Under the pieces are notes generated by a model. The model saw only the letters and a list, made by a program, of their open reading frames with translations, did no database searches and had not been told where the DNA came from. Below are positions 9,668 to 57,480 of a stretch of DNA of 64,000 nucleotides, piece after piece. The stretch's first letter is position 1, and each line of letters starts with the position of its first letter. A program made the position numbers and the translations under genes. The DNA is taken from assembly GCA_050250855.1 (NCBI GenBank), contig JBFWNW010000002.1, positions 69,925 through 133,924 of the forward strand. The letters are read 5' to 3'. Source of the stretch: Candidatus Babeliales bacterium. Lineage in GTDB: Bacteria > Babelota > Babeliae > Babelales > JACPOV01.

Positions 9668-9673
9668 TTTTTA

Positions 9674-10519
9674 TTATGGATTTCCATATTTTTTGAATAT
9701 TTTTTCAACAAAAATACGGTTTGATTCTTTAGAAAGCTTTACTGCATGGTTATAATCAGCATTAAGTTTAAACGTTTTTTCTTCATTGCAACGATCAAAA
9801 CCATAGCCTTCCCATAATTTTTCCCAGTTTTCTTTATACTCCAAACAACTGAGAATGGTAGGCAATGCTCCTTCAAGCCAAGCATCATTTTTTCTATAGA
9901 TTTCGCACAGTTCAATAAAATCATCTTTATATACCGCTGGTATATATGCTATATCTGCATATGCATGACAGATGCAATTATCTCCCCAGTTAGCTTTTAA
10001 CATTTCCTTATAGCAATCAGGCGTTTCTTTATAAGCATTCTTTAGTGCTTCATAACCAAATTTTGTTGGCCACCAACAATTAGTAATTGCTCTAATCCCT
10101 TTATTTAAATTAACAGCTTCTCCAATATCATATCTATGCCAATTAACGAATACATGATTAGCGGCCCATATTTTTGATAGATCAAAACGATTATAACGCC
10201 AAACATTCATTAAGCAATCATCGTGACAGAACAAATACCCTTTATAATCAGGAAATCTTTGCATAGCATCACTAAGAGCATAATAACTAAATGCCCCTCG
10301 CTCCTCTTCAATCGCATAAACGTCAGGACACTCACTTGGTCCATAAAAAATTACTTTAGAAAAATAAGGCTCATAGATCTTTTTTAAAAATGAGATTGCT
10401 TCATAATGAGCAAAATTAAAATTTATAATTAAAAGAACATCATCAAACATTTTTCCATAATTAGAAAAAATAATAGTAAAGACAAAAAAATAAACAATTC
10501 TTTTACTAAAAAAAACCAT
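9674..10519 (-). CDS. Hypothetical protein, last gene of the glycan locus; possible glycosyltransferase
   Basis: 281-aa ORF with a hydrophobic N-terminus (IVYFFVFTIIF). I recognised no family motif. Function is guessed from context only. Confidence 0.35.
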   Translation of the reverse strand: MVFFSKRIVYFFVFTIIFSNYGKMFDDVLLIINFNFAHYEAISFLKKIYEPYFSKVIFYGPSECPDVYAIEEERGAFSYYALSDAMQRFPDYKGYLFCHDDCLMNVWRYNRFDLSKIWAANHVFVNWHRYDIGEAVNLNKGIRAITNCWWPTKFGYEALKNAYKETPDCYKEMLKANWGDNCICHAYADIAYIPAVYKDDFIELCEIYRKNDAWLEGALPTILSCLEYKENWEKLWEGYGFDRCNEEKTFKLNADYNHAVKLSKESNRIFVEKIFKKYGNP

Positions 10520-10531
10520 AGGTTTCCCTTT

Positions 10532-11611
10532 CTAGTGTGTTATAGTTTTATAATAGCTATAAGCCTTTTCAAGCATAGCTATTTGCTCCGGTGTAAAAAT
10601 TAACTCTCTTTTGTAATCAGGAATAGTTAATGATAACACGGTATCAATAAAATATTCTGTAGAAAATAGAAATGCCATTTCGCTCTTCAAGTAAGCTTTA
10701 ATATTTTTAATATATTGATCATATTCTTCTTTTTTCATCTTTTTCATAAATTTATATAATTCTCGATTATTTTTAAATTTACGGCGATCAATAAAGCAAC
10801 TTGGCCATACACAATCGGTAATATTTTCTGCACCCCAATAGACTGGTACACAGCCAGAAACTAAACAATCAAAAATTTTTTCTGTAATATAGCCAGGAAC
10901 ATTATTACAATTTTCATAACAAATGCAAAATTTATAATTTTTTAATACTGGGCGTTTATGAGGAACCTTGCCTTTAAATGTCTTAAATTGCGATGCAGGC
11001 CAACCACCTTCACCATAAAAATCAAATTTTTTTCTCCTTTTACTTTTTTTCTCAAAAAAATTAATTACTTCTCTTCGTGCAGAATATAACTGGCCAACTC
11101 CTCCTGACATCTTATAGCTTACTATCATAGTGCACAATTTCTTTTGATCAAAAGAAGGAATATCTTTTTCTATTTCTAATGATGGTTGAGGATAAAAAAA
11201 CTTTAAAGCTTTATCGTTATCAATCATTGCATCAGATAAATATAAAATTTTTTTACAATAAGGCCGATAATCAAAACTATACATTCCTGGCGCAATCAGA
11301 GGCGGTTCAAAAACTCCAAAAATAGATTTTTCTTGCAATGTTTTCGGCAAAAGATCGACATTAGGAGTATTTAAAAAAAAAGCCCCTATACAATTATCAT
11401 CATTATAATCACTAAGCTCTAAACAGCTTGGATGATAACCAAGATTTTTTATGGCTTGTGCAAAATCGTAAAACATCTTCCATCCATTATCGCGACAAGG
11501 GTAATTAGGAATATTTAATATTTCATCAGACAAATTAAAATAAAATACTTTTTCTGTTCCAACTACAGTAAAAAAAGCTAAAAAAACTAATACTCTTATC
11601 TTATTATTCAT
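10532..11611 (-). CDS. GT10-family alpha-1,3/4-fucosyltransferase (copy A1)
   Basis: GT10 signature FCICYENCNNVPGYITEKIFDCLVSGCVPVYWG; compare H. pylori FutA FENS..GYVTEKI...IPIYWG. Signal-like N-terminus. Confidence 0.85.
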   Translation of the reverse strand: MNNKIRVLVFLAFFTVVGTEKVFYFNLSDEILNIPNYPCRDNGWKMFYDFAQAIKNLGYHPSCLELSDYNDDNCIGAFFLNTPNVDLLPKTLQEKSIFGVFEPPLIAPGMYSFDYRPYCKKILYLSDAMIDNDKALKFFYPQPSLEIEKDIPSFDQKKLCTMIVSYKMSGGVGQLYSARREVINFFEKKSKRRKKFDFYGEGGWPASQFKTFKGKVPHKRPVLKNYKFCICYENCNNVPGYITEKIFDCLVSGCVPVYWGAENITDCVWPSCFIDRRKFKNNRELYKFMKKMKKEEYDQYIKNIKAYLKSEMAFLFSTEYFIDTVLSLTIPDYKRELIFTPEQIAMLEKAYSYYKTITH

Positions 11612-11618
11612 ATATTTT

Positions 11619-12467
11619 CTACGCCTTCAAGTAACTATGTTGTAAATGGGGATTAAAAAAAAGAGCCGCGAGCGCAACATTTGATACGCCATGGATAAAA
11701 TGATCACACTTAGAAAGCAACTGTGTTTCAATCAAAACCTGTTCTCCCATTAATGCTCTATTTTTTACTTGTTGGTTCCATATATGTAATCCTGTATCAT
11801 CAAGAGATCGATAGGAGTCATAATAGATCACCTTACCAGGTAATTTCTTTTTTAATTCATCAAGAACTCGTTGATCATCAGTCGCTACCAAAAATTGTGC
11901 TCCCTTATGCTTAGAAGCCTCTTCTATATACTGCTTAAGAGGAATTCGCGGTGCTTCATTATGGTCTGTTCTGCGTACATGAATACCGACCGTCTTTTTA
12001 CCTTGCATATTTTTGTGATAAAAATCATCAATTTTTGCACTAATTTGAGGTTTTATATGTATATATTTTTCTATATATGAGTTAATAAAAGATCTATATT
12101 CATAAGAAAAATTTTGTTCATATCCAATATATCCGCAAGGTATAGCTTGACCATCTGGCGTAACATAATCTTCATGTATTACATCACCAGAATTATACTG
12201 AGCTTCTGAGACGGGATAAAAATAATATTCCCAAATATTATCACTTCCATTATAAGTTCCTGATACTTTATAATAAGCAGGAGCACGGTTCCAATGTACC
12301 ACAAGATCTAGCCCTTTTTCTTCACACCATATAAGATGACTGACTACACCAAATATATTAGAAAAAAGACCTGCCCAGCGACCACCTAAAACATAATGAT
12401 CTTTTGAAAAAGAGAAAAAACTAAAAAATATAATCGACATACAAAGAAAACAAGAATAATTTTTCAT
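11619..12467 (-). CDS. GT23-like (FUT8/NodZ-type) fucosyltransferase (copy B1)
   Basis: GIHVRRTDH ... FLVATDDQRVLDELKKKLP ... GLHIWN ... closely parallels FUT8 IGVHVRRTDK ... VYLATDDPSLLKEAKTKYP ... GLHNRY. Signal-like N-terminus. Confidence 0.75.
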   Translation of the reverse strand: MKNYSCFLCMSIIFFSFFSFSKDHYVLGGRWAGLFSNIFGVVSHLIWCEEKGLDLVVHWNRAPAYYKVSGTYNGSDNIWEYYFYPVSEAQYNSGDVIHEDYVTPDGQAIPCGYIGYEQNFSYEYRSFINSYIEKYIHIKPQISAKIDDFYHKNMQGKKTVGIHVRRTDHNEAPRIPLKQYIEEASKHKGAQFLVATDDQRVLDELKKKLPGKVIYYDSYRSLDDTGLHIWNQQVKNRALMGEQVLIETQLLSKCDHFIHGVSNVALAALFFNPHLQHSYLKA

Positions 12468-12502
12468 TAACTATTTCCTCAACAAAAATCTGTTTTATAG
12501 CT

Positions 12503-13387
12503 CTAAGAAATAACCAAGCCTACCTTAAAATCTTCCGTCATTTTTAAATATATGCTTTTTAATAATGGATTAAAAAACAATGCACCCAAGGAAACATTTG
12601 ATACAGAGTGAATAAAACAATCGCACAAAGAAAGTAGCTTTGATTCTATAAGCACTTGCTCTCCCATAAGAGCTTTATTATCTACTTGTGGGTTCCATAT
12701 ATGCAATCCTTTATTATTTGAAGAACGATACGCATCATAATAAATAACGTTTCCCTTTAGTTTTTGTTTTAAAATATCTAACACTGATTGATCATCGGTC
12801 GCTACTAAAAACTGCACATCTTTAAAAGAATTTGCCACCTGAATATAAGCATTAAGAGGAATGCGTGGCGATTCATAATGATCTGTTCTTCTAACGTGAA
12901 TTCCTATTGTTGCTTTACCTTCCATATTTTTTTTATAAAAATCATTCATTTTTTCAAGAATAGAAGGCTTTATGTGAATATATCTTTGAATATAGGAGTT
13001 AATAAATGATCTATATTCATAAGAAAGATTTTTTTCATATAAATAATATAAACATTCAATAGCTTCTCCATCTGGTGGCGTATAATCTGCGTGCAATTCA
13101 TCACCAAGTTGATAGTGAGCTTCTGAAACAGGATAAAAATAATATTCCCAAATATTATCACTGCCATTATAACCATCACTCATCTTGTAAAAAGAAGGCT
13201 CATCTTTCCAATAAACTACTAAGTCCATTCCCTGTTTTTCACACCAAATGAGATGATTAATGACCCCAAGGATATTTGAAAATAACCCTGTCTGCCGACC
13301 TGTCAAAACATAATAATTATTACTTAAACAAGAAAATGATTGTCCTAAGAAAAAAACTCCTATAATAATTTTTACAAAAAACCGCAT
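12503..13387 (-). CDS. GT23-like (FUT8/NodZ-type) fucosyltransferase (copy B2)
   Basis: Paralogue of 11619..12467: GIHVRRTDHYESPRIPL, FLVATDDQSVLDILKQKL. Confidence 0.75.
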   Translation of the reverse strand: MRFFVKIIIGVFFLGQSFSCLSNNYYVLTGRQTGLFSNILGVINHLIWCEKQGMDLVVYWKDEPSFYKMSDGYNGSDNIWEYYFYPVSEAHYQLGDELHADYTPPDGEAIECLYYLYEKNLSYEYRSFINSYIQRYIHIKPSILEKMNDFYKKNMEGKATIGIHVRRTDHYESPRIPLNAYIQVANSFKDVQFLVATDDQSVLDILKQKLKGNVIYYDAYRSSNNKGLHIWNPQVDNKALMGEQVLIESKLLSLCDCFIHSVSNVSLGALFFNPLLKSIYLKMTEDFKVGLVIS

Positions 13388-13390
13388 AAC

Positions 13391-14461
13391 TTATCCTATT
13401 TTTTTAAACAAAAAAGAACAATAATCCTTTGCCTTTTCAAGGTTAGTTATTTGTTCCGGGTTAAAAATAAGCTCTTTTTTATAATCAGGAACTGTTAATG
13501 ACAAAACTAAATCAATAAAATATTCCATAGAAAATAAAAACGCCATTTCACTCTTTAAATATGCCTTGATATTTTCAATATATTGATCGTATTCCTCTTT
13601 TTTCATATGCTTAATGAAATTGTACAACTCTTGATTATCCTTAAATTTACGCCGATCAATAAAGCAATTTGGCCATACATAATCGGTAATATTTTCTGCA
13701 CCCCAATAAATAGGGACACATCCTGCAACTAAACAATCAAAAATTTTTTCTGTAACATATCCTGGCGCATTGTTGCTATTTTCGTAACATATACAAAACT
13801 TGTAATTTTTGAGCACTGGTCTTTTGTGAGAAACCTTCCCTTTATAGGTTTTAAATGACGCTGGCCATTCAATACCATATACATCAAGCTCTTGGACTCT
13901 TTGAGGATCTGAATCAAAAAAATTAACTACACTAAGACGTTGGGTAAATAATTCTCCAGGCCTTTCTATAAATTTATAGGTTGCAATAAGTGCACATAGT
14001 TTTTTTTCATGAAAATCTGGAATATCCTCTTCAATCTCCAGTGAAGGTTGAGGATAAAAAAATTTAAATCTCGTATTGTTATCAATCTTATTATCCAAGA
14101 GATATAAAGTTCTAAAAGGATAGAAGGTTGTTGTATAATAACCAGGAGCAATAATAGGCGGCTCCCATAATGAGAATAAACATTTTTCAGGAATTAGATT
14201 CGGTGAAATATAATTGGGCAAATTAATAAAAAAAGCACCTGCATAATCTTTTGATCCCAGATAATCAAATTCTTTTACCTCATAACCAAGTTTTTTTGCC
14301 GCCTGAGCTAATTCATAAAAAACTCTATAAGCAGCATCTCTTTGCGGATAAGAAGTATCAGTAAAAGTAACTTCTGGAAGATTTATATAAAAAATCCTTT
14401 GATCAGCTTCACTCAAAAAAACCTGTAATAAAAAAGTAATTCCTAATAAATAGCGCACCAT
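13391..14461 (-). CDS. GT10-family alpha-1,3/4-fucosyltransferase (copy A2)
   Basis: FCICYENSNNAPGYVTEKIFDCLVAGCVPIYWG. The C-terminal half is nearly identical to copy A1. Confidence 0.85.
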   Translation of the reverse strand: MVRYLLGITFLLQVFLSEADQRIFYINLPEVTFTDTSYPQRDAAYRVFYELAQAAKKLGYEVKEFDYLGSKDYAGAFFINLPNYISPNLIPEKCLFSLWEPPIIAPGYYTTTFYPFRTLYLLDNKIDNNTRFKFFYPQPSLEIEEDIPDFHEKKLCALIATYKFIERPGELFTQRLSVVNFFDSDPQRVQELDVYGIEWPASFKTYKGKVSHKRPVLKNYKFCICYENSNNAPGYVTEKIFDCLVAGCVPIYWGAENITDYVWPNCFIDRRKFKDNQELYNFIKHMKKEEYDQYIENIKAYLKSEMAFLFSMEYFIDLVLSLTVPDYKKELIFNPEQITNLEKAKDYCSFLFKKIG

Positions 14462-15933
14462 TATACTATGCCAAAATTATACAGCTTTCTCTTTTGATAT
14501 AGCTGCTGATCATACCTAAAATATTGTGCATTACGCACATATAAAGGATCGTTATGATCAGAACCATCTAAAGGGTAATTATTCTTAATAAGCTGCTCAT
14601 AGAATATTTTTTCTTTACCGAGTGAACGGGCTACTTCAGCCAGTTCATTATCGCAGTAATATGATTTATATTCTGGATAATAAATATATCCAAACCGTTT
14701 ATAATACATTCTGCCTATAATAGGATAAATAACATAGTCTTTAGGATCTCTGCCATCTGAAAAATTAAGGATACCGTCAAAATCAGGAAAATGTTTCAAC
14801 ATTTGACGCACTATAACTACATCATAGTTTTTTACGATAGGTTCAAGATCATCACTTACTACTAAAATAACGTCAAACTTATCAATAAAATCATCGATAT
14901 CTTTATTGTATGCTTCAATTTTTGAACTACTATTGCCAAAGCGATAAGAAAGATTTGGCAAACTATCAAGAATACTTATTACCTTGGCATTATTCATAGT
15001 TGGATCATCTTGATCGCACGTAATTAAAAAATGGTAGGGAATGGTTCCTGATAACATCTCATAGTACTTTTTTAAATATTGGAAAAATTGTACCGGACGA
15101 TAACGCGTTGGAATTTTTATAAGTAGACGAACTAACTGCTCTCTTGACTGCTTGCAAGCATGAAATGCTATAGTATCTATATCTTTTTTATATGCACTAT
15201 AGGGCCTTGGAGGTAAACAATCAACATAAGTACCTTCTTCAATACGGCCCACATCATAGCGCCAATTAATTTTATCTATTCTCGTGCGTGGTGAAACTAC
15301 ATCAGTTTTGCCCAATCGTATACAGCGACTCTCATAACCATCCCACGCAAGTACCGTTTTATATAACATTTTTTGATCAGTGGTCCATCCAATTGCAGTA
15401 TCATGCCATTCTTTAATCTTTTGAGGGATATCCTCTTTTGTGAAAATCTTAAAAATTTCTGCAAAAATTTTACCTTTACCTGCAACATAGCACATAGGAA
15501 TTTCTTTGAATTGTCGTTCAAACTCTTCGCTATCTCGATAAACAACAAAAACATCATCAGCTAAATCTTTAATACGCTCGGTAAAATAATCTCGAGAAAG
15601 AGGTAATAAGTCTATATCAGAAACTATGCAACAATCATTGGGAAATAACAAGGGCAAAAATAAGCGAATACATTGAGCATATAATGACGTTGGTATGCCT
15701 GGAATAGGCTCAAAGCGAATAATGTCACCTAATGATTCATCTATTTCTACACTTTTATCTGCAATTAAAGCTAACGTTGGCCTTATACCAACTACTTCTT
15801 TCCACATCTTGGCAACCAGCGGCCAGTATTCTATATAATTGGGATTTGCATCAGTAGACAAAATAACACGATCAAGCGTTAAAGCTTCTGCTTTAAAAAT
15901 ACATAAAAAAAGTACTACGTATATTCTTCTCAT
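14461..15933 (-). CDS. Hypothetical two-domain protein, possible glycosyltransferase
   Basis: 490-aa ORF with signal-like N-terminus MRRIYVVLFLCIFKAEA and 1-nt overlap with the downstream gene. No family motif recognised with confidence. Confidence 0.4.
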   Translation of the reverse strand: MRRIYVVLFLCIFKAEALTLDRVILSTDANPNYIEYWPLVAKMWKEVVGIRPTLALIADKSVEIDESLGDIIRFEPIPGIPTSLYAQCIRLFLPLLFPNDCCIVSDIDLLPLSRDYFTERIKDLADDVFVVYRDSEEFERQFKEIPMCYVAGKGKIFAEIFKIFTKEDIPQKIKEWHDTAIGWTTDQKMLYKTVLAWDGYESRCIRLGKTDVVSPRTRIDKINWRYDVGRIEEGTYVDCLPPRPYSAYKKDIDTIAFHACKQSREQLVRLLIKIPTRYRPVQFFQYLKKYYEMLSGTIPYHFLITCDQDDPTMNNAKVISILDSLPNLSYRFGNSSSKIEAYNKDIDDFIDKFDVILVVSDDLEPIVKNYDVVIVRQMLKHFPDFDGILNFSDGRDPKDYVIYPIIGRMYYKRFGYIYYPEYKSYYCDNELAEVARSLGKEKIFYEQLIKNNYPLDGSDHNDPLYVRNAQYFRYDQQLYQKRKLYNFGIV

Positions 15934-15943
15934 AGCTATCTCT

Positions 15944-17305
15944 TTATTCAGTACATGAAATTAAACAAATATCTTCTTTGTCTTTGGATAAATCATAAGA
16001 TTGTATAGTTGAAAGTGATAATACAGTATTTCTTTTTACTATCATGCCACATGAATCTGCAGGAGACATAAATTTTACTTGTGAAATAGCTAAACCATCC
16101 CATAGATATGAAGCATTTTGCTGAGAAGAAAAATCTTTTTTGGATAGTATACAGAAATTTGATTTTGTATCATGCATAGCTTCTGCACAAATTTCTCTAT
16201 TTTTTAATGTTTCTAAAGCTTTAACGTCTGTAATAACACAATAATAATCATAATTAACATCTTTTAACCAAAAATCAGGTGATGCATCCTGCGATGGGTT
16301 AATAACAAACGTATAATGAGAGTAAAGAGAAGCTAATTGTTCATAATCATTTTTATGAGATAAGTCTCCACAGCAAATAACGTTTAGATTTTCATTTTTA
16401 TATAAACCTTTAAATGCGCTTAATGTCTCTGCAAGTGTATTTGGATCATTAGCATAGATCAAAAAAGGAATAGATTTTTTTTGATACGATTCTCGATAAG
16501 GTCTTTGTTCAAGGGGTTTGTATGCCGACCGGCTGCTAATAACCTTTCTTAAAAATTGTTGCTTTTCCCAGTTAGTTGCACCATCTGCAATTGGATTATC
16601 TTCATTGTAGCGATATAAAATGTTTGGGTTAAATTTGTAATGATTAATTGCCATCTCTATAATTGGATACACCCAAGAAACGTCCTGTGCCATAGAGAAA
16701 AACATACCTTCATGTAGTAAATCTTTAAGAGCAACTTCTCTAAAAAGCCATGCATACATGCAACGAGGAGGACTAAAATACCAATTTTGACGAATAAGAT
16801 TACGCTGCTTTACCATAGGAGGAATATCACCAGACCATGGTGCATAACCGTTTCTTGTTCCCCAAAAATTACCGTAGGTAAACCAAATAGATTCATCACT
16901 AAACTGTTCATTGATTGATGATAAAACATCTTTTGTAGTAAAGGTATCATCGCCATCCAAAATTACTGCAATTTCATGAGGTTTGCAGAATTTATAAAAG
17001 GCATACACAATATTTCTGAGCGCAAGACCACGAATTTCATTTTTAATAAGAGTAACGCGATGATGTATATCATACTGATCAATAAAAGCCTTTGCATTTG
17101 CATAAGTATTATCAGGAGAACAATCATCTATATAAACAACGCGAAATTTTTCATAATCCTGCATAAGAACTGATGCTAAATTTTCATTGCATACATCTTG
17201 ATTTTTATAAGAAGGAATAATAACAACAATATCATGCTGATATGCTGCTGCTATAGTATATACTCCCCCTACAAAAATTAATCCAAAAAATAGTTTTAAA
17301 TTCAT
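15944..17305 (-). CDS. GT2-family glycosyltransferase with an extra C-terminal domain
   Basis: VVIIPSYKNQD...VVYIDDCSPDNT and DGDD (DXD) motifs. Preferred start MNLKLFF at 17305 forms an ATGA overlap with the upstream stop. An alternative start lies at 17335. Confidence 0.8.
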   Translation of the reverse strand: MNLKLFFGLIFVGGVYTIAAAYQHDIVVIIPSYKNQDVCNENLASVLMQDYEKFRVVYIDDCSPDNTYANAKAFIDQYDIHHRVTLIKNEIRGLALRNIVYAFYKFCKPHEIAVILDGDDTFTTKDVLSSINEQFSDESIWFTYGNFWGTRNGYAPWSGDIPPMVKQRNLIRQNWYFSPPRCMYAWLFREVALKDLLHEGMFFSMAQDVSWVYPIIEMAINHYKFNPNILYRYNEDNPIADGATNWEKQQFLRKVISSRSAYKPLEQRPYRESYQKKSIPFLIYANDPNTLAETLSAFKGLYKNENLNVICCGDLSHKNDYEQLASLYSHYTFVINPSQDASPDFWLKDVNYDYYCVITDVKALETLKNREICAEAMHDTKSNFCILSKKDFSSQQNASYLWDGLAISQVKFMSPADSCGMIVKRNTVLSLSTIQSYDLSKDKEDICLISCTE

Positions 17306-18243
17306 ACACACTTCCTTATTTGCTTTAAGTACCATTGAAAATTTTTAATATCATTTCTTGAACTATAAATATGGGTATTTTCATTAACAAAATCACCTTG
17401 CCAGGTAATATAAAAAGGAATTGAAACCTGATTATAATCCAAAAGCATAGGAACTTTCTGCGTATAGTCTTGTTTATGAATGCAAAGATCTTTTAAATAG
17501 GCTAAAATTCCCAACAACGCTTGTTCATAGCGAGCACAACCAAACCCTTCAGGAGCTGTCCCATCATCAATAAAATTTCTTAAATCTTTGCTCATGTTAT
17601 ATAAGGGAGTAATAAAAAGATCTTGTGCTTTTTGCGCTACACCAATAACACCAGCCATAACTGCCTCTTGTGAAAGTATCCATTGATACTCGGGAGCATC
17701 AAGATTAAATTTATTTCTTACATAACGCGTTGTCTGCCATGCAATGGGATGTCTAAATTTACCATTATCACGCTCATTACCAATAGTAGCTAAAAAATAT
17801 CCTTTGTGCTGTATATATTCAAATAAATCATCAAGAGGACGCAATACCGTTGAGCCTGCATCTATCCATAGAACATAGGGAAATCTTTCTAAAGCCTGTT
17901 TTATAACAACAGGTTTCCATGCAAACCATCCAGGAACCATTCTTCCTGCCTTATTAATTACTACCTGCCTGAGTAAGTCAGGATGCGTTAATTCAACATT
18001 ATAAACTGCTATATTTTGAATAGTTTTAAGAAAAGAAATTTGTTGTTCTTCAAGGCCTAAATCAAAAACAGCAATTTCGTTAATATTGTCATAATTTGTA
18101 GCATGTAATGATCCAATTAAATTTAAAAGCTTAGAAAAATATTTTGCATCACATGCAGTACAATAATACTGAGGAATAGCTTGTAGAAAAGCCATTCCTC
18201 CTAATAAAGCTAACCATACATAAAGAGTCTTTCTTTTTATCAT
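17302..18243 (-). CDS. Nucleotide-diphospho-sugar-transferase-like protein
   Basis: Signal-like N-terminus. FAWKPVVIKQALERFPYVLWIDAGS resembles GT-A families with a W-K-P...D-x-D/S core. Family assignment is uncertain. Confidence 0.45.
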   Translation of the reverse strand: MIKRKTLYVWLALLGGMAFLQAIPQYYCTACDAKYFSKLLNLIGSLHATNYDNINEIAVFDLGLEEQQISFLKTIQNIAVYNVELTHPDLLRQVVINKAGRMVPGWFAWKPVVIKQALERFPYVLWIDAGSTVLRPLDDLFEYIQHKGYFLATIGNERDNGKFRHPIAWQTTRYVRNKFNLDAPEYQWILSQEAVMAGVIGVAQKAQDLFITPLYNMSKDLRNFIDDGTAPEGFGCARYEQALLGILAYLKDLCIHKQDYTQKVPMLLDYNQVSIPFYITWQGDFVNENTHIYSSRNDIKNFQWYLKQIRKCV

Positions 18244-18249
18244 TACTCT

Positions 18250-18840
18250 TTACTCAAAAAATGTACGAATATCTATAGTATCACTGACAATCGTTGTCTG
18301 AATTGCATAACGCAAATAAGTATAACGATATTTGAAAGTTGCAAGAACTGGTTCATACCCATATGCAGGTTCTTCTGTATCATGTACAACAAAAATATCT
18401 GCATTATGGCGCAAACGCTCAATATCAACTCTTCGTCTATCACCAGGACGATGATCAACAAAAACCACTGACCAATAGCGATCTGTTCCTACAGCATCCC
18501 ATAATTCTGGCTTTGGATTCTTTGCCCAATCATCTTCAAAAACAGGAATATAGCTAAAATGATGCCAATCTCGTGCCAAATCTATAAATAAAGAAAGCCA
18601 TCTTTTATCAGTATCTGTTGTAAGAAGAAACCGTTTTGTTACTGAACAAACAGCATGCAAAAGTGGCGTACTATAATCCCCAGATCCAAGTTCTAAAATA
18701 GGCCCTTTAGTATTTGCCACGACCGTCATAAGAGGAGCCATGTGAGTCCCATAATTGCCATCACCAAGACGTCTATTCGCTTCTATAAACTGGCCATTTA
18801 AACTCAATAAAATTATGAATAAAAATAATTTTTTTTGCAT
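18250..18840 (-). CDS. Possible SAM-dependent methyltransferase-like protein
   Basis: ILELGSGDYSTP resembles Rossmann motif I, and VVFVDH / VVHDTE strands follow. Start MQKKLFLFIILL at 18840 avoids overlap with the upstream gene. Confidence 0.35.
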   Translation of the reverse strand: MQKKLFLFIILLSLNGQFIEANRRLGDGNYGTHMAPLMTVVANTKGPILELGSGDYSTPLLHAVCSVTKRFLLTTDTDKRWLSLFIDLARDWHHFSYIPVFEDDWAKNPKPELWDAVGTDRYWSVVFVDHRPGDRRRVDIERLRHNADIFVVHDTEEPAYGYEPVLATFKYRYTYLRYAIQTTIVSDTIDIRTFFE

Positions 18841-18853
18841 ACTATTCCCTCTT

Positions 18854-19774
18854 TTAAAAAGACCAATCAATATCCCAAATATCTAAATCTTTAAAGTAAC
18901 CTTTTCCATACTGTTCAAACCATGCCAATACCTGTTTTTTCCTCCATAAAATTGGTTTATCCCATACAGAAAAATCAAGAAATTCATAACCTTTAAACCA
19001 ATATACTGGAGATGGTTGCGTTCTTAATCCTCGCTCATCTTTTGAAGGGAAATAACGCACATTAATTTCCTGGCAAGATTTTTCTGGTTGCCTGATACGC
19101 TCAAGACAGCGATACCACGCTTGTTTTTCTAATAAGTTTTGCCAATTAACAAACTGAAAATGCAAAAGGCCATATTCATAACCCTGTAAACGGAATCTTT
19201 TTCCTTGCACGGGAAAACTACGATTATGCAAAAAGTATGAAGGAAAATTTGAAACACCATCATCGCAAAAAATAACAGGTTTATAATCATTGGTCCATTT
19301 TGAGTCATCAAAACGATAGCGATCTATTGTTCTCCAGAGTTGAATCCAACAAACCTCCATACTTTCTCCTGGCTGCAAAGAAAGAATAAGTTTGCGTAAA
19401 AAATTATTATCTGAACAGTTTGCAGTAAACATTTCATCCGCATCAATTAAAACAAAATGAGTACCACCAAGTGCTCTGCCAGCATCTAATAATTTCTGCT
19501 TGTTATCACTTTCTTTGCCAACTTGCCAGCCAGATTGTTCATTGCGCAAAATGACAAATTCTTTGCCAAGCTTTTTACAACATGATTCAACCAGAATTTT
19601 AGTGCTATCTTCAGAATTATCATCAAGCGTAACAAATGCATCAACATAAAAAGACAATGCTTGTAAACATTGCTCAATACATTGCTCTTCATTTCTTACT
19701 TGCATAAGACTTACTATTTTAGGTGAAGCAGTTAAAGATAAAAAAGTCCCTAACAATAATAATAATTTAAACAT
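18854..19774 (-). CDS. GT2-like glycosyltransferase
   Basis: VSLMQVRNEE...VTLDDNSEDST and LIDADEMF (DXD) motifs. Start MFKLLLLLG at 19774 is preceded by AAGGAG. Confidence 0.6.
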   Translation of the reverse strand: MFKLLLLLGTFLSLTASPKIVSLMQVRNEEQCIEQCLQALSFYVDAFVTLDDNSEDSTKILVESCCKKLGKEFVILRNEQSGWQVGKESDNKQKLLDAGRALGGTHFVLIDADEMFTANCSDNNFLRKLILSLQPGESMEVCWIQLWRTIDRYRFDDSKWTNDYKPVIFCDDGVSNFPSYFLHNRSFPVQGKRFRLQGYEYGLLHFQFVNWQNLLEKQAWYRCLERIRQPEKSCQEINVRYFPSKDERGLRTQPSPVYWFKGYEFLDFSVWDKPILWRKKQVLAWFEQYGKGYFKDLDIWDIDWSF

Positions 19775-19787
19775 ATTCAGCACTCCT

Positions 19788-20636
19788 TTACTGAACAAAT
19801 GCTTCTTTTTTTAACCAGCTTCCTGCCCAATGGTGCACCGCATATGATTCAGGTTTTTGCCATTCTGAGGCAGGGGTTCCTCGTTGTTCATAACCACATG
19901 GGTAAAAGTAACTAGCGGGAAAAGCTACGATACGAAATTCTTGCATCATAGAGGGAACATATTTTAAAAAAAGTTTAGTAAAAAACAAAGGACCCGTTCT
20001 TAGTATAATCTGAATCTCATGAGATGAATTACGCAACTCTTCAATACATTTTTGCAATAATGGATGATGAGGAATAGACGCTATTAAAGCATTGTTAAGC
20101 TGGACCATATTGGTATCCAAAGGTTGAATACCGGTGTAAAAATCATAAATACATAAAGAATTCATTGATTTTAAACATTCAAAATCGGTATCAATGTAAA
20201 TACCCCCAAATTGCTCTAAAATTTCATAACGCCAAATATCAGACTTTTCACCATAATTCTTTGAAGCATCAAATAGATCTTTATTACGCCACGCAAATGA
20301 TGCTACATCTGCATCTGTCCATAATTTATATTCCCAGCCAGGATTATGCTTCAACCAGCTTTCTTGATAAGCGCGGTATTTTTCAGGAAAAGGACTACCA
20401 AGCCAAATTTGATGTATTATTTTAGGGATACGAACAGACGTCGGCACAATTCTTGCTGGTGAAAATAAGTTATATAAACGCTCAAAAAAGTTTTTAAGCA
20501 TCATATTATTATTCTTTTCAAGAATATGTTTATATGAATCAGCTTGCATTGATGTATTAAAATCTACCCATATAAAATTTTCCTGTGCACAAACTAAAGA
20601 ACTAAAAAGAAACGTTATGCTTAATAGTTTTTTCAT
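19788..20636 (-). CDS. GT32-type glycosyltransferase with a DXD sugar-binding region
   Basis: IPKIIHQIWLG...NPGWEYKLWTD...SDIWRYEILEQFGGIYIDTDFECL is a classic Gly_transf_sug/OCH1-type signature. Signal peptide MKKLLSITFLFSSLVCA. Confidence 0.8.
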   Translation of the reverse strand: MKKLLSITFLFSSLVCAQENFIWVDFNTSMQADSYKHILEKNNNMMLKNFFERLYNLFSPARIVPTSVRIPKIIHQIWLGSPFPEKYRAYQESWLKHNPGWEYKLWTDADVASFAWRNKDLFDASKNYGEKSDIWRYEILEQFGGIYIDTDFECLKSMNSLCIYDFYTGIQPLDTNMVQLNNALIASIPHHPLLQKCIEELRNSSHEIQIILRTGPLFFTKLFLKYVPSMMQEFRIVAFPASYFYPCGYEQRGTPASEWQKPESYAVHHWAGSWLKKEAFVQ

Positions 20637-20638
20637 AA

Positions 20639-21670
20639 TTATACCCTTGCTTGTTTATAAGATTTTTCTGGTACAACCTTGTGCGCTAAATACCAAAAAT
20701 ATGCTTCCTTTAAACCATTTTTCAATGAAGTTTTTGCTGTCCAACCAAGCTGTGAAATTTTATCAACATTTAATACTTTTCTTGGCGTGCCATCTAAAGT
20801 ATTGATATTAAAAAGGATTTCTCCTGCATACCCAACGATCTCTTTAATTAAAGAAGCTAGTTCGGCAATTGTTATATCTTTACCGGTCCCAATATTAATA
20901 TGACCCGATTCTTCATAACTATTCATTAAAAATAAGCATGCTTGCGCTAAATCATCGACGTATAAAAATTCTCGCAACGCTTTACCCGTTCCCCATAAAG
21001 AAACTGACGGTTTATTTTCTTCTTTTGCTGCATGAATTTTTGCAATAAGTGCAGGAATAACGTGCGATGATTCAAAGTCAAAATTATCATGAGGACCATA
21101 AAGATTTGTTGGCATACAAGAAATAAATTTTGTACCATATTGCCTGTTATAGCTTTTGCATAAAAGTATGCCGGCAATTTTTGCAAGCGCATACGGCTCA
21201 TTTGTTTTTTCAAGTTCATCGGTCATTAAATACTCTTCTTGTATTGGTTGAGGACAATTACGAGGATAAATGCAAGAAGAACCTAAAAATAAGAGCTTTT
21301 TAACGCCATTGGTATACGATGCATGAATAATATTTGCTTCAATCATAAGATTGTCATAAATAAATGAGGCTGGAAAATCATTATTTGCTTTAATGCCGCC
21401 AACTTTTGCAGCAGCCAAAAACACATATTCCGGTTTTTCTTGGTTGAAAAAATCATGTACCGCTGCTTGGTTGCGCAAATCAAGTTCTGCAAAACTACGC
21501 GTTATAAGGTTAGTATATCCTTCAGCTTGCAACGCTCGCATTAAAGCAGAGCCAACCAACCCCTGACCTGCTATATAAATTTTTGCCTGCTTGTCCATAT
21601 GTGCTTCACTAACACCAGTAAAAAGATTAAAAATCAAGCCTATACTCATTATCTTTGTTACGTAGTTCAT
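20639..21670 (-). CDS. fcl: GDP-L-fucose synthase (GDP-4-keto-6-deoxymannose 3,5-epimerase/4-reductase)
   Basis: Collinear with E. coli Fcl from [11 protein letters not shown] (ATG at 21598) to the C-terminus: [33 protein letters not shown]. An upstream in-frame ATG at 21670 has a strong AGGAGA SD and adds the hydrophobic 24-aa segment [24 protein letters not shown]. Confidence 0.9.
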
Positions 21671-22859
21671 GAGATTCTCCTGATAATTTTTGAGCTGCAA
21701 TGTAGATATTTGAGCCGGTTGCCTCACTTTTTAATTCCCATGCAATTTGTTCTAAATCTGCATCCATCATTAGACAAACTAAATCTTTAAAGGTTGTTTT
21801 TGGCTCCCAACCAAGAAGTTTTTTTGCTTTGCTAGGATCACCCAGTAAAATTTCAACTTCAGTCGGTCTGAAATAACGAGGATCAACCGCTATCAACAGC
21901 TCACCAGTTTTTTTATTGTATCCTTTTTCCTCAGCACCTATACCGCGCCATTCTACCGTAATACCAACACGTTCAAATGCTAATTCAACAAACTCTCTTA
22001 CGGTATGCGTTTGTCCGGTTGCAACAACCCAATCTTCAGGCTTTTCATACTGTAAAATAAGCCACATTGCTTCTACATATTCTTTGGCATAGCCCCAATC
22101 TCGTTTTGCATCAAGATTACCTAAATAAATAGGATCTTTTTTACCTAAAGAAATTGCGGCTACCGCACGCGTAATTTTTCTGGTTACAAAGGTTTCGCCA
22201 CGTAAAGGAGATTCATGATTAAATAAAATACCATTTGCAGCAAACATGCCGTAGGCTTCTCGATAGTTTACCGTTATCCAATAGGCATAAAGTTTTGCAA
22301 CACCATAGGGAGAACGTGGATAAAAAGGGGTCGTTTCTTTTTGAGGAATTTCTTGTACGTTGCCATACATTTCTGAAGTTGATGCTTGGTAAAATTTCGT
22401 TGTTTTATCAAATCCGGTTACACGCAATGCTTCTAATAAACGCAAGGTACCTATGCCATCAGCATTTGCTGTATATTCTGGCACTTCAAAAGAAACTTTT
22501 ACATGAGATTGTGCTGCAAGATTATAAATTTCATCAGGCTTAATTTCTTGTATCAAACGAATAAGATTGGTAGAATCGGTCATATCACCAAAGTGTAAAA
22601 AGAAATTTCCTTTCTTTTTATTATGAGGATCACGGTATAAAGGATCTATGCGATGCGTATTAAACATTGATGAACGACGTTTAATGCCATGAACTTCATA
22701 CCCTTTACCCAGTAAAAATTCAGCCAAGTAGGCCCCATCTTGACCAGTTATACCGGTAATTAAGGCAACTTTTTTCTTCATACTCTGCTCTCCTGCAAAA
22801 AAAGTACTGAATCCTAAGCAAGCTACTGCAACAAAAATTTTTTTATAAGAGTGCTTCAT
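21627..22859 (-). CDS. gmd: GDP-mannose 4,6-dehydratase
   Basis: Collinear with E. coli Gmd from [16 protein letters not shown] (ATG at 22781, AGGAGA upstream). The longer ORF from 22859 adds [26 protein letters not shown]. Confidence 0.92.
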
Positions 22860-22874: not shown

Positions 22875-23903
22875 TTATGTATAATGATGGCTATTTTTTT
22901 CCCGTAATTGATGCAAAATATGTTTTACTTTATCTGTCTGATCTCGCTTCGCTATTAAAAGAACATCATCTGTTTCTACAACACATAGATCTTCAACGCC
23001 TATAAGTGCTACGAGCTTTTTTGGCACCTGAACAATATTATTAGCTGCGTGCAATTCAATAACTTCTGTTTGCTGTTGGCTATGCTTTTTGTGCAAAGAA
23101 AGAAATATTTCTAAGTTGCCAACATCTGACCATGTAAAAGAGCAGGGCTGTACATACACGGCATTACTTTTTTCTAATACCGCATAATCAATAGAAATAT
23201 TTTCGGCATCTTTGTAATCTGCTTTATGTTCAAAAAAATCACATACCACCTTATATAGCTGTTGGGCATGACGATTGTATTCTTCTATAAAAACAGAACT
23301 TTTGGCACAAAAAATACCTATATTCCATAACATGGTATCCATGGTACTATATACATCCGCCAATTGCGCTGAAGGTTTTTCATGAAAACGAGAAACTTTT
23401 ACAACATCATTTTTTTGCGCTGCCATTTCTATGTAGCCATAGTTTGTTGCGGGAAAATCAGGACGAATTCCTAACAATGTTATGGCATCATGAGCTTGCG
23501 AAAATTCTAACGCATTATTTAAATGTTTGGCAAATTGGTCATCTTCTACAATAAAAGCATCAGCAGGTAAAAAAGCTATAATTGCTGAAGGGTCTTTTTG
23601 TTGAATATAAAGCGTAGCCAAAAGTAATGCTGGCGCTGTATTGCGGCCAATTGGTTCAGACAAAATGCCGCCTATAGAATCTCCCAAAAGACTTTTAATA
23701 GAATCAACCTGCTGCTCAGTTGTCATAATAAAAATATTATGTTTTTCAACAATTAAAGAAGCACGCATAACAGTACGCTCAAGCAAAGAATTTTGATCAT
23801 CAAGAGAGAGCAGCTGCTTTGGCTTTTTCTCTCTACTCAAAGGCCATAAACGCTCACCTTTGCCTCCAGCTAAAATAACAATATAGCGTGATGTTATATC
23901 CAT
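22875..23903 (-). CDS. manC: Mannose-1-phosphate guanylyltransferase (nucleotidyltransferase domain only)
   Basis: VILAGGKGERLWPLSREKKPKQLL N-terminal NTP-transferase signature. At 342 aa there is no C-terminal isomerase/cupin domain. Confidence 0.8.
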   Translation of the reverse strand: MDITSRYIVILAGGKGERLWPLSREKKPKQLLSLDDQNSLLERTVMRASLIVEKHNIFIMTTEQQVDSIKSLLGDSIGGILSEPIGRNTAPALLLATLYIQQKDPSAIIAFLPADAFIVEDDQFAKHLNNALEFSQAHDAITLLGIRPDFPATNYGYIEMAAQKNDVVKVSRFHEKPSAQLADVYSTMDTMLWNIGIFCAKSSVFIEEYNRHAQQLYKVVCDFFEHKADYKDAENISIDYAVLEKSNAVYVQPCSFTWSDVGNLEIFLSLHKKHSQQQTEVIELHAANNIVQVPKKLVALIGVEDLCVVETDDVLLIAKRDQTDKVKHILHQLREKNSHHYT

Positions 23904-23909
23904 AACTAT

Positions 23910-24623
23910 TTATTTTTTTCTTCGTTCAAAAAACAAACGACAAAATGTTTTAGCTGCTTCTTTCATAATTGCTACTGAAAGCTTTGAATCGCCATGAATT
24001 CTATTACGTGCATGAATCGGAATTTCTGTTATACGCAAACCATCCTCTTTAAAGCGATACAGTGATTCAATGCAGAAAGAAAATCCTTTTGAACTTACTT
24101 TTTTATAGACATGAGGCTTTAATTTTTGTACAGAATATAAACGGTAAGCACCGGTACAATCGTACGGCATACCAAGGCCTCGTTTAATTAAATTTCGCCA
24201 AAAGTAAGTAAATGGTAAACGAATTCTTCCCCAACCGCTCATGCCACCGCCATGAATATAGCGTGAACCAATAACGACATCATGAACATCTCTTTTTTCA
24301 AAAAGAGCAGGAATATAACGCGGATCGTGCGTAAGATCTGCATCCATCGTAATTAAAAATTTATAATTATGTTTTTGCGCATATTCAAATGCCTGCACGT
24401 GAGCCGTTCCTAAACCAAGCTTTGCAGGGCGATGCATAACATGCACAGAAGGATCTTTTTTACTTAAATCATCAAGAACTTTTCCGGTGCCATCTGGAGA
24501 ATTATCATCACAAAAAAGAATATCAACATCTTCTTTGTGCTTCTTTATTTCTTCATACAAAATTAAAACATTGTCACGTTCATTATAGGTGGGAACAAAA
24601 ACTAAAACTTCATTTTTTTGCAT
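23910..24623 (-). CDS. Polyprenyl-phosphate sugar synthase, Dpm1/Ppm1-like GT2
   Basis: VFVPTYNERDN...DILFCDDNSPDGTG...HRPAKLGLGTA...ITMDADLTHDP is the canonical dolichol/polyprenol-phosphate mannose synthase pattern. Confidence 0.8.
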   Translation of the reverse strand: MQKNEVLVFVPTYNERDNVLILYEEIKKHKEDVDILFCDDNSPDGTGKVLDDLSKKDPSVHVMHRPAKLGLGTAHVQAFEYAQKHNYKFLITMDADLTHDPRYIPALFEKRDVHDVVIGSRYIHGGGMSGWGRIRLPFTYFWRNLIKRGLGMPYDCTGAYRLYSVQKLKPHVYKKVSSKGFSFCIESLYRFKEDGLRITEIPIHARNRIHGDSKLSVAIMKEAAKTFCRLFFERRKK

Positions 24624-24632
24624 AGTATAAAC

Positions 24633-29485: not shown

Positions 29486-29500
29486 AGGAAAAGTTCCTCT

Positions 29501-30685
29501 CTATTTTACTACTAATGTAGGCTTAATTTTTTTGTGATCAAGAACATTAGAATTATCGTGCATAAAAAAATTCTTAATACCTTGTACCATTTTTTCTGCT
29601 GCATAACCATCACCAAAGATAGTACGTTTTTTTGGCTCACTTAACAAGATGGTATCAGCTATTTGTTGTAACATATCAGTAATATTCTTTTCATCCGTCC
29701 CTACTAAATGTGCAACACCTTCCCACACTGCCTCCATGCGCTCTGTTTCGTTGCGCAAAATTAAGGTAGGCTTTCCTAAACTTGCTGCCTCTTCGCAGAT
29801 GCCGCCGGAATCTGATGCTACAATATCGGCCTGTAAAAGAATGTATACTAAATCTTTATACGCTACTGGCTTACACATAAAAATATTTGAAGTGCCATCA
29901 AGACCAACCGACTGAATAGCTTGCAATACGTTTGGATTTGGATGATAAGGATAAATAAAAAATGTATCAGGATTTTTTTGAGCATACGTTTTGATGGCAG
30001 TTAGTATTGATTTAATACCGCCATTAAAGGATTCTCTACGATGCGCTGTTACTAAAATAATTTTTTTACCGTGTTTTTTATTCTCTTCTATAACTGCTTT
30101 AAGAGTAGCATCAATAAGAACTACTTCTTGTTTAATTTTTTCTTCCATAATACGCAAGGCATCAACAACGGTATTTCCTGTGCATAACACTCTTTGTCTT
30201 TCAATATTTTCTGATAAAAGATTTGCTGCTGCCGTTGCTGTTGGTGCAAAATGAAGCTGTGCGACCATAGAAATAAAACGTCGATTCATTTCCTCAGGAA
30301 AAGGTAAATCTATTGTTGGGGTACGCAATCCTGCTTCAACGTGAGCAAGGGGGATTCTTAGGTAAAATGCAGCAAGAGCTGCTGTCATTGCCGTGGTTGT
30401 ATCTCCTTGCACAATAACAAGAGAGGGCTCAACTGACACAAATATTTCTTTAATTTTTTCCAAAACTTTTTGCGTAATATGGAAAAGGTCTTGTCCTGGC
30501 ACCATACAATGCAGTTCAAAATCTGGCTTAATTGAAAAAAGATCAAAAGCTTCTTGCAATAAATTGTTATGTTGATTTGTTGAACATATTAAAACAGGCA
30601 ACTTTGCTCGTTTAAGAGCATAGTAAAGAGGTATCATTTTAATACCTTCTGGCCTCGTTCCAATAACAAGAATAATTGGTTTCAT
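29501..30685 (-). CDS. wecB: UDP-N-acetylglucosamine 2-epimerase (non-hydrolysing)
   Basis: ILVIGTRPEGIKMIPL, VQGDTTT, HVEAGLRT and SDSGGICEEA motifs. Confidence 0.9.
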   Translation of the reverse strand: MKPIILVIGTRPEGIKMIPLYYALKRAKLPVLICSTNQHNNLLQEAFDLFSIKPDFELHCMVPGQDLFHITQKVLEKIKEIFVSVEPSLVIVQGDTTTAMTAALAAFYLRIPLAHVEAGLRTPTIDLPFPEEMNRRFISMVAQLHFAPTATAAANLLSENIERQRVLCTGNTVVDALRIMEEKIKQEVVLIDATLKAVIEENKKHGKKIILVTAHRRESFNGGIKSILTAIKTYAQKNPDTFFIYPYHPNPNVLQAIQSVGLDGTSNIFMCKPVAYKDLVYILLQADIVASDSGGICEEAASLGKPTLILRNETERMEAVWEGVAHLVGTDEKNITDMLQQIADTILLSEPKKRTIFGDGYAAEKMVQGIKNFFMHDNSNVLDHKKIKPTLVVK

Positions 30686-52638: not shown

Positions 52639-52650
52639 ATGTAGAAAAAA

Positions 52651-57478: not shown

Positions 57479-57480
57479 TT

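Follow-up and report, generated by a model that had tools for sequence, protein, structure and literature searches.

In textbook bacterial glycobiology, all steps that use sugar nucleotides are cytoplasmic, and the periplasm is limited to lipid-linked donors. Among the closest described systems, the lipooligosaccharide (LOS) alpha-2,3-sialyltransferase Lst of Neisseria gonorrhoeae is an outer-membrane enzyme of the Leloir type that uses host CMP-N-acetylneuraminic acid (CMP-NANA; PMC4324315). GlgA of Chlamydia trachomatis acts inside a compartment of host origin, where its substrate is host UDP-glucose brought in by SLC35D2, and GlgC of the same species has no secretion signal and was proposed to stay inside (PMC4829429). 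Here we describe a glycan locus in a 64-kb stretch of DNA (the window, whose coordinates are used throughout unless another locus is named) from a Candidatus Babeliales metagenome-assembled genome (MAG; Dependentiae/TM6), in which eleven consecutive proteins carried signal-like N-termini and the genes of two GDP-fucose-making enzymes, gmd and fcl, were open into signal-like extensions. The phylum Dependentiae (TM6) consists of obligate parasites that live inside protist cells. The explanation we favour, with a probability of roughly 45%, is that these N-termini are true Sec signals and that the glycosyltransferases (GTs) behind them act outside the cytoplasm on host-supplied donors, elongating a glycan of the envelope.

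The locus is a single densely packed gene array on the minus strand, running from 30685 to 9674. Its first part encodes, in order, WecB, WecC, a fused ADH/GFO-type oxidoreductase, a multi-pass PMT_2 (GT-C) membrane protein, a Dpm1/ArnC-like GT2 protein, ManC, GDP-mannose 4,6-dehydratase (Gmd) and GDP-L-fucose synthase (Fcl); the genes from wecB to manC (22875..30685) form a core without signals. Downstream of fcl, and on the same strand, follow eleven genes: a GT32 protein (19788..20636, signal MKKLLSITFLFSSLVCA), a weak GT2-like protein (18854..19774, MFKLLLLLGTFLSLTA), a 196-aa protein (18250..18840, MQKKLFLFIILLSLNG), a 313-aa protein (17302..18243, MIKRKTLYVWLALLGGMAFLQA), a GT2 glycosyltransferase (15944..17305, MNLKLFFGLIFVGGVYTIAAA), a 490-aa protein (14461..15933, MRRIYVVLFLCIFKAEA), the GT10 fucosyltransferase-like protein b (13391..14461, MVRYLLGITFLLQVFLSEA), the NodZ/FUT8-like (GT23-like) proteins b (12503..13387, MRFFVKIIIGVFFLGQSFS) and a (11619..12467, MKNYSCFLCMSIIFFSFFSFS), the GT10 fucosyltransferase-like protein a (10532..11611, MNNKIRVLVFLAFFTVVG) and a STELLO-like GT protein of 281 aa with a partial match (9674..10519, signal-like N-terminus MVFFSKRIVYFFVFTIIFS). 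All eleven N-termini that the initial annotation had listed between 9674 and 20636 were found. In three genes, the signal-encoding ATG (17305, 18840 and 19774) was the first ATG inside a slightly longer open reading frame (ORF) started by GTG/TTG or ATG, and each had its own Shine-Dalgarno (SD) match (AAGGA, GAGG and AAGGAG, respectively).

Signals were called with a simple n/h/c heuristic (basic tip, uncharged run, Kyte-Doolittle hydropathy, small residues at -3/-1). In all eleven proteins and both extensions, the hydrophobic run was preceded by an n-region with 1-3 Lys/Arg and free of acidic residues; the uncharged run was 10-26 residues long (mostly 10-20), and the best 8-residue Kyte-Doolittle mean was 2.4-3.7. 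At least one small-residue -3/-1 site was present just after the run in 11/11 proteins and in both extensions (e.g., VCA/Q, LTA/S, LQA/I, AAA/Y, AEA/L and SEA/D, the slash marking the cut), a rule of low specificity. The N-flank was at least as positive as the ten residues past the run in 10 of the 11, with the GT2-like protein as the exception, which by the positive-inside rule favours a predicted N-in/C-out orientation. Run lengths of mostly 10-20 residues fit a signal peptide better than a membrane anchor. The 19-residue Kyte-Doolittle mean reached 1.6 or more in about half of the eleven, so that some of them may be uncleaved anchors. The core proteins, said in the initial annotation to start directly in their folds, were negative for ManC, the Dpm1-like protein, the oxidoreductase and WecB; WecC was flagged only through a Rossmann strand, which is a false positive. 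A twin-arginine (Tat) signal was rejected, as the motif S/T-R-R-x-F-L-K was absent: the sole Arg-Arg pair among the N-termini was MRRIYVV in the 490-aa protein, with the rest of the motif missing, and there was none in Gmd or Fcl. A lipoprotein signal was likewise rejected, the lipobox [LVI][ASTVI][GAS]C being absent from all eleven N-termini on direct reading. The neighbouring OmpA-like protein (7341-7976) does have a lipobox, LAGC.

Alternatively, these hydrophobic segments could stay uncleaved and tether the enzymes to the inner membrane on its cytoplasmic side, in a conventional, membrane-bound assembly line fed by cytoplasmic sugar nucleotides. The cofactor and donor problem of exported enzymes would then disappear, a 19-residue mean of that size is sufficient for a membrane helix, and both the Lys residues close behind the Gmd hydrophobic run and the cytoplasmic Fcl of three related loci (L005, L006 and L010, below) would agree with it. 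However, the N-out/C-in insertion that it demands would break the positive-inside rule in 10/11 proteins, many of the runs have just 10-15 residues, and small -3/-1 residues stood past the run in all eleven window proteins and, by eye, in many listed relatives. Further, no linker separates the supposed helix from the first strand of the fold, and the locus has no conserved flippase or polymerase gene that would serve a glycan built in the cytoplasm. We regard cytoplasmic tethering as improbable.

The Gmd and Fcl extensions reported in the initial annotation were confirmed: the long form of gmd (21627..22859) is open for 26 codons upstream, from 22859 to an internal ATG at 22781, and the long form of fcl (20639..21670) begins 24 codons ahead of the canonical ATG at 21598, with the ATG at 21670, which follows AGGAGA at a distance of 5 nt. 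Both gmd starts appear usable, with AAGGA before 22859 and AGGAG before 22781, each at a spacing of 8; the long start of fcl has AGGAG at a spacing of 6 and the canonical one only GTGA. In both proteins the extension lay wholly upstream of the fold (Gmd, 523 bits over profile positions 1-330 of 332; Fcl, 217 bits on the Epimerase model), and a full-length family match and a glycine-rich NADP loop were present. Fcl was 100% identical to a protein named 'GDP-L-fucose synthase family protein' by the Prokaryotic Genome Annotation Pipeline (PGAP). Its glycine-rich loop (21560-21598) reads IAGQGLVGS, one residue less than the AGHxGLVGS of most relatives, and P0075 is likewise short. Gmd and Fcl of the window were 60-77% identical to Firmicutes and Methanosarcina enzymes and are of the ordinary bacterial type; among the 120 best Gmd matches, standard proteins of ~362 aa prevailed, with Firmicutes and archaea among the sources.

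The closest relatives of Gmd (P0123-P0127, P0129 and P0185, the last being the L006 protein) had a signal-like extension and, behind it, kept the Met of the canonical start, and the gmd gene of L005 had an uncalled in-frame extension that was signal-like and retained the canonical Met. Altogether, 9/9 Babeliales-type Gmd, the window included, had both a signal-like extension and the canonical Met. Babeliales-type Gmd (window 21627-21770; P0123-P0127, P0185) also have unconserved C-terminal tails that run 25-45 residues past the usual end of the fold; the tail in the window is ~45 aa long and overlaps the fcl extension in another frame. For Fcl, 120 sequences were compared (the window protein and its 119 best non-identical database relatives). 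A signal-like extension was present in 51/120, grouped in blocks in a neighbour-joining ordering, and 38 of these 51 had a Met in the last nine residues of the extension, compared with 14% expected from composition.

In other loci the extension has no internal start to fall back on. Neither gene of L007 contains an internal Met (Gmd MMRLFFSLLYTAFILACFDQVHADSPQRKKALIFG, Fcl MKYRMSGAILFLTCLCSMASVFSESLPLDAKIYVAGH). The GroEL next to them is 91% identical to that of a Parachlamydiaceae MAG and 87-88% to Protochlamydia, so L007 was assigned to Parachlamydiaceae. Obligate signal-bearing forms were found for Gmd in L007, L008, L011, L013 and L014 and for Fcl in L007, L013 and L014. No such N-termini were seen on the housekeeping genes of L007 (LexA, SDR, DEAD helicase, ParA, ABC ATPase), which together with the obligate forms indicates that the extension is a real, selected protein feature. 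The putative export extension is thereby found in both Dependentiae-type loci and Chlamydiota.

These forms bear on the possibility of an artefact, in which AT-rich upstream DNA would yield peptides rich in Phe, Ile, Leu and Lys, ORF calls would be too long and the true starts would lie downstream. A GC content of 30-35% suits such an error, as do the short gmd and fcl starts chosen by PGAP and the canonical Met that is mostly kept. However, the many Gmd and Fcl without any internal Met largely refute it. For the eleven GTs, any start further downstream would cut into the fold, and the ATGs that encode the signals are preceded by SD motifs; the extensions are open and signal-like across dozens of divergent sequences, and housekeeping genes of the same loci lack the feature. 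An artefact is hardly credible.

Conservation was assessed in five related Dependentiae-type loci, found by exact-protein look-ups of Fcl and Gmd relatives: L005 (JGI 3300038435), L006 (Logan SRR27977663), L010 (Logan SRR24804371), L011 (GCA_022599615.1) and L012 (Logan SRR17161166). One short contig, L009, came from a metagenome scan with a PMT_2 alignment and stops before gmd. The core was common to all five loci, in identical gene order in the window, L005, L006 and L010, and the GT cassettes differed; in L006 the cassette ends at rng and an OmpA-like gene, as in the window. The GT cassette is therefore a variable region beside a conserved core, arranged like a surface-polysaccharide locus. 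L011 (4200-6752) and L012 (1085-3601) encode WecB and WecC as a single fusion protein of 838-850 aa; the window, L005, L006 and L010 have a separate gene for each.

A phmmer search with the eleven window proteins returned 23 homologues in the five loci, 22 of them with readable N-termini. After start codons were re-read (GTG for the NodZ-like gene of L005, upstream starts for the GT2 genes of L011 and L012), 21/22 had a hydrophobic N-terminus. This held for all eight GT2 homologues and for the six readable ones among seven GT32 homologues. The sole exception was the GT10 of L006, in which the hydrophobic stretch is still encoded, separated from the reading frame by a stop next to a T7 run. At L006 16630-16760 the signal-coding region, TIFFYILFIPFNTIFS followed by TEKNVYIIPF, stands behind the in-frame stop, with the T7 homopolymer and a possible TTG..AAC AAT start; this might reflect an indel introduced in assembly, a pseudogene, or phase variation of a glycan gene by strand slippage. 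The signal sequences themselves were unconserved, even within the paralogue pairs of the window (GT10 a and b, 59% identical; NodZ/FUT8-like a and b, 67% identical over the aligned region). Such conservation by apparent character and not by sequence is the usual behaviour of signal peptides.

The same pattern extended through the GT10 subfamily. When GT10 a was searched exhaustively against 1.84 billion cluster representatives, 7,420 matches reached E<=1e-3 and 740 reached E<=1e-30. The strict heuristic was passed by 106 of the best 150 relatives; about 10 more were hydrophobic without a basic residue, and others were incomplete. The signal of these proteins runs straight into a conserved first strand (roughly K-T-I-Y-I-I-P), a stem region being absent, and signal-GT2-GT10 fusion proteins exist.

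The chance level is high in these organisms. In Chromulinavorax destructans (Dependentiae), 44% of all coding sequences have signal peptides and Sec was proposed as their route (PMC6561590). Outside the 13-gene block formed by gmd, fcl and the eleven cassette genes, the heuristic flagged 16/42 window ORFs (38%) as signal- or transmembrane-like, in line with that value. The naive probability of a run of 13 signal-like genes is of the order of 1e-4, a value that treats the genes of an operon as independent, which they are not; taken alone, the run is suggestive and only moderately improbable in a phylum with ~40% signals. Two distant loci around fcl, from Thermodesulfobacteriota and Parvularcula (L003 and L004), the sole matches of a GTDB genome scan with Fcl, were used as negative controls. 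Only 3/15 ORFs of L003 and 0/18 of L004 were flagged, and their Gmd, Fcl and GT2 had no extensions and began directly in their folds, so the heuristic does not flag proteins indiscriminately. The decisive weight comes from the relatives that keep the signals and the ordinary bacteria that do not have them, and not from the probability of the run.

Signals were also seen on other enzymes of cytosolic type. In L012 the NTP_transferase domain of ManC begins at residue 34, behind MKIQYMLLIMCMPYSLCSG, and the region 7813-12138 of that locus encodes this signal-bearing ManC, a standard gmd product (362 aa), a signal-bearing Fcl and a signal-bearing Gmd (371 aa). The two gmd copies are 64% identical, one with and one without a signal, which suggests a gene-level duplication into cytoplasmic and putatively exported versions and matches the idea of two isoforms. 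The GT6 of L012 matches profile positions 72-312 from its own residue 27. In L008, signal-like N-termini were found on three GT4 proteins, a Nucleotid_trans protein, an NAD-dependent epimerase and an acetyltransferase. All 11 genes of L014 168-10712 (GC 28%) had classical signal peptides: Fcl, Gmd, four S-adenosylmethionine (SAM) methyltransferases, two NAD-dependent epimerases/dehydratases, an RXYLT1-like GT and two of unknown function. The fucosyltransferase-like GTs are tagged together with the GDP-fucose makers, and in other loci tags are also present on ManC, epimerases, SAM methyltransferases and GT6, which makes a coherent pathway.

GH1 and HAD-like enzymes are usually cytoplasmic. In the window, signal-like N-termini were present on a GH1 beta-glucosidase (5848-7284, plus strand) and on two HAD-like proteins (1807-2577 and 5090-5848, both plus strand), the first with a Pfam match below the cut-off and the second with none; HAD hydrolases and ankyrin proteins are among the signal-peptide proteins of Chromulinavorax (PMC6561590), in agreement with the HAD signals of the window. 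Two tandem paralogues (33681-35117 and 35447-36886, plus strand) combine a classical signal peptide (MKNHFKKLLLFGLLGAMPTIFA) with Skp1_POZ (E 1.6e-16) and seven WD40 repeats. Such eukaryote-like domains point at host SCF ubiquitin ligases, which implies that some proteins with predicted signals reach the host cytosol. Two adjacent small paralogues on the minus strand (3734-4120 and 4252-4890) have signal-like starts (MFLAHYKNFALVVLL and MFLSRYKNFALAALL) and no family match.

The family assignments show what is being tagged. Both GT10 proteins scored above the Pfam gathering threshold (57.9 and 58.4 bits, cut-off 23.9, Glyco_transf_10) and are assigned to GT10 by sequence; fucosyltransferase activity is a prediction. 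Their closest solved structure was Helicobacter pylori FucT (2nzw, E 7e-12), ahead of plant and human enzymes. GT32 matched PF04488 (Gly_transf_sug) with 62 bits against a cut-off of 23, its DTD motif being read in GGIYIDTDFECL, and it also matched the TcdA_TcdB catalytic-domain model, the DXD region being common to the TcdA/TcdB glucosylating toxins. The GT2 protein scored 57.7 bits on Glycos_transf_2 (cut-off 23.3). The GT32, GT2 and GT10 labels of the initial annotation thus stood. Support for its GT23-like labels, from NodZ/FUT8 models, was marginal: protein a scored 29.0 on NodZ (cut-off 28.3) and 28.3 on FUT8 (cut-off 27.6), protein b reached 22.0, under the gathering score, and the match to FUT8 in the PDB was weak (E 5e-3). 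The STELLO-like match of the 281-aa protein was only partial, and the protein at 18854-19774, with Pfam scores of 20.5 and 24.4, both below cut-off, is GT2-like only. The methyltransferase-like label of the 196-aa protein was dropped, as neither a family nor a homologue was found for it. The 490-, 313- and 196-aa proteins gave nothing from Pfam at E<=5 or from NCBIfam, and single-sequence structure prediction of the 490-aa protein reached a mean confidence (pLDDT) of only 32. Orthologues of the 313-aa protein with signals were found in L005 and L010, where the N-terminal domain of the 490-aa protein was also kept, with a signal; phmmer found no homologue of the 196-aa protein in the five related loci.

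Golgi enzymes typically belong to families such as GT10, GT23-like, GT32, STELLO-like, GT6 and RXYLT1-like, and the parasites live in protists. Both points would suit signal anchors inherited from eukaryotes or giant viruses, as in Golgi type II enzymes, and persisting without a specific role; the initial annotation had offered membrane anchors from eukaryote-like ancestors as one of two explanations. However, Gmd, Fcl, ManC, epimerases and methyltransferases, which are never luminal in eukaryotes, carry the same kind of signals; Gmd and Fcl are of bacterial type with unrelated signals added, and signal sequences are unrelated between orthologues and between paralogues alike. The nearest solved GT10, Helicobacter FucT, is bacterial, and a stem region is absent from the GT10 subfamily and from the GT6 of L012, in which a signal of 26 residues replaces the tail, transmembrane segment and stem of eukaryotic enzymes. 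Inheritance from eukaryotic anchors is very improbable. Export, the other of the two explanations, was better supported, by conservation of character, by a charge balance in favour of N-in/C-out in 10/11 proteins and by the obligate signal-bearing Gmd and Fcl.

In the explanation by Sec export, the N-termini would be Sec-type export signals, either cleaved signal peptides or N-in signal anchors, maintained by selection. The signal-less module would deliver lipid-linked sugars to the periplasmic face: it comprises WecB, WecC, the oxidoreductase, ManC, the Dpm1/ArnC-like protein as a putative polyprenyl-phosphate sugar synthase, and two PMT-like GT-C proteins, the second being a multi-pass membrane protein encoded divergently from wecB (30817..32298, plus strand) that adjoins the core in relatives too. 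The hypervariable cassette of Leloir GTs (GT10, GT23-like, GT2, GT32 and others) would be translocated by Sec and would elongate an envelope glycan in the periplasm or on the cell surface. An envelope glycan is favoured because the cassette is co-operonic with the lipid-linked-sugar/GT-C module and hypervariable between conserved flanks. GDP-fucose, UDP-sugars and the needs of exported Gmd and Fcl (GDP-mannose and NADP(H)) would come from the host cell, much as host ATP reaches the inner-membrane nucleotide importers of energy parasites; Dependentiae import host ATP and possess Sec (PMC6561590). The demand for NADPH, GTP, SAM and sugar nucleotides suggests a compartment that is metabolically connected to the cytosol of the host, which could be the periplasm or surface of the parasite, or a host compartment reached via the GspC/secretin and PilM/secretin cluster described below. 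For Gmd, and here for Fcl too, initiation at both in-frame starts would probably yield an exported and a cytoplasmic isoform, as suggested by the retained canonical Met, the AGGAG inside the gmd extension and the gmd duplication of L012. The generalization is a little more tentative than the explanation for the window: obligate intracellular members of at least two phyla, Dependentiae and Chlamydiota, may have a Golgi-like Leloir pathway outside the cytoplasm, in the periplasm or in a space exposed to the host. It would be fed by host GTP, GDP-mannose, NADPH and SAM, with ManC, Gmd, Fcl, epimerases and methyltransferases exported as well.

Several observations weigh against Sec export. Proteins pass through Sec unfolded, Gmd depends on bound NADP+ and Fcl uses up NADPH, so that cofactors would have to be loaded outside the cytoplasm; neither cofactor is known from a periplasm. 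We identified neither an acceptor nor a flippase-independent carrier nor a nucleotide-sugar transporter. In the three closest loci, L005, L006 and L010, Fcl has no extension, owing to stops upstream or to a 4-nt overlap with gmd, and the fucosyltransferase-like GTs do carry signals; GDP-fucose would have to cross the membrane or be host-derived in these loci, in which no GDP-fucose exporter was evident. In the window, PGAP picked the short forms (Fcl, 319 aa; Gmd, 384 aa), the long start of fcl overlaps gmd by 44 nt, and a KKK 6-8 residues past the predicted cleavage site of Gmd could hinder export. The heuristic yields false positives, as with WecC, and since ~40% of the proteins of this organism appear to bear signals, the feature is less special than it would be in Escherichia coli.

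The exported enzymes might also leave the cell. Downstream in the window (51457..60033, plus strand) lie a GspC-like gene of type II secretion system (T2SS) kind, a secretin, a PilM-like gene, a small PilO-sized protein and a second secretin, in a hybrid T2SS/type IV pilus arrangement that is a possible exit route across the outer membrane; the PilM-like protein has a hydrophobic segment in its C-terminal half. The initial annotation had named the secretin system at 51.5-60 kb as a possible route. GspC (T2SSC), two secretins and PilM are indeed present there, and nothing ties the cluster to the enzymes, a connection that we can only infer. Enzymes released via such a secretin or in vesicles would be effectors in the host vacuole or cytosol, glycosylating host molecules or rewiring the sugar-nucleotide pool. 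Proposed effectors of Dependentiae, ankyrin-repeat proteins among them, are marked by signal peptides (PMC6561590), and the two signal-bearing Skp1_POZ-WD40 proteins, with their eukaryotic cytosolic domains, suggest a role in the host cytosol. The required cofactors (NADPH, GTP for ManC of L012, SAM for the methyltransferases of L014) are cytosolic, and the toxin-like DXD region of GT32 and the GspC/secretin cluster within the window are also compatible with secretion. However, the co-operonic lipid-linked-sugar/GT-C module can act on the bacterial envelope only, the cassette varies between conserved flanks like surface-antigen loci, at least 10 GTs suit the stepwise assembly of one glycan better than a set of toxins, and host-targeting domains were absent. 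A role as released effectors is the main rival to the envelope explanation, conceivable and on the unlikely side.

If the signals of an envelope-building pathway function as read, a class of intracellular parasites would break the cytoplasm rule, with glycans built or remodelled outside at the metabolic cost of the host. The space outside the inner membrane of the parasite would be a metabolic extension of the host cytosol, which would redefine the metabolites that reach the periplasm of energy parasites and would explain variable fucosylated surfaces in organisms of minimal metabolism. The retained internal Met would be a candidate bacterial case of one gene serving two compartments by alternative initiation. 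Isolated extracytoplasmic Leloir enzymes and the signal-rich secretome of Dependentiae were already known. The whole tagged assembly line, sugar-nucleotide synthesis included and common to Dependentiae and Parachlamydiaceae, appears to be new, as we could not find it described: none of the papers found on Dependentiae/TM6 and on extracytoplasmic glycosylation reported tagged sugar-nucleotide enzymes or their recurrence in Parachlamydiaceae. C. destructans belongs to the same phylum and has a predicted secretome rich in signal peptides, with Sec as the proposed route; the main text of its description contains no mention of glycosyltransferases, fucose or nucleotide sugars (PMC6561590).

Compared with known systems, Neisseria Lst is alike in being an extracytoplasmic transferase that decorates the bacterium's own surface glycan with a scavenged host sugar nucleotide. 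However, it is a single enzyme of another GT family that adds one terminal sugar, with neither exported sugar-nucleotide synthesis nor a cassette. The glycogen enzymes of C. trachomatis share the setting of an obligate intracellular parasite with sugar-nucleotide-dependent enzymes outside the bacterium, but they use type 3 secretion without Sec signals and make a storage polymer. Glycosylating toxins and effectors (Clostridioides TcdA/TcdB, Legionella Lgt/SetA, NleB/SseK) are also Leloir enzymes, working on UDP-sugars of the host once outside the bacterial cell; they differ in being single enzymes with their own delivery domains or signals for type III or type IV secretion systems, in targeting host proteins and in forming no operon assembly lines. 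H. pylori FutA/FutB are the closest solved relatives of the GT10 proteins and stand in a variable GT cassette beside gmd and fcl, but lack signal peptides. As in conventional O-antigen/LOS assembly, the Helicobacter enzymes modify lipid-linked intermediates inside the cytoplasm, before these are flipped.

The eukaryotic Golgi places the same GT families (GT10/FUT, FUT8, GT32, GT6, STELLO) behind an N-terminal hydrophobic signal on the non-cytosolic side. The signals described here differ in being short, without cytosolic tail, transmembrane segment or stem, and in tagging the GDP-fucose makers, which are never tagged in eukaryotes; a nucleotide-sugar transporter, the further point of this comparison, was not found. 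As would be the case here, glycan elongation in the Golgi comes after a first step of the PMT/Dol-P-Man type, and signals that function as read would make the pathway a bacterial analogue of Golgi glycosylation.

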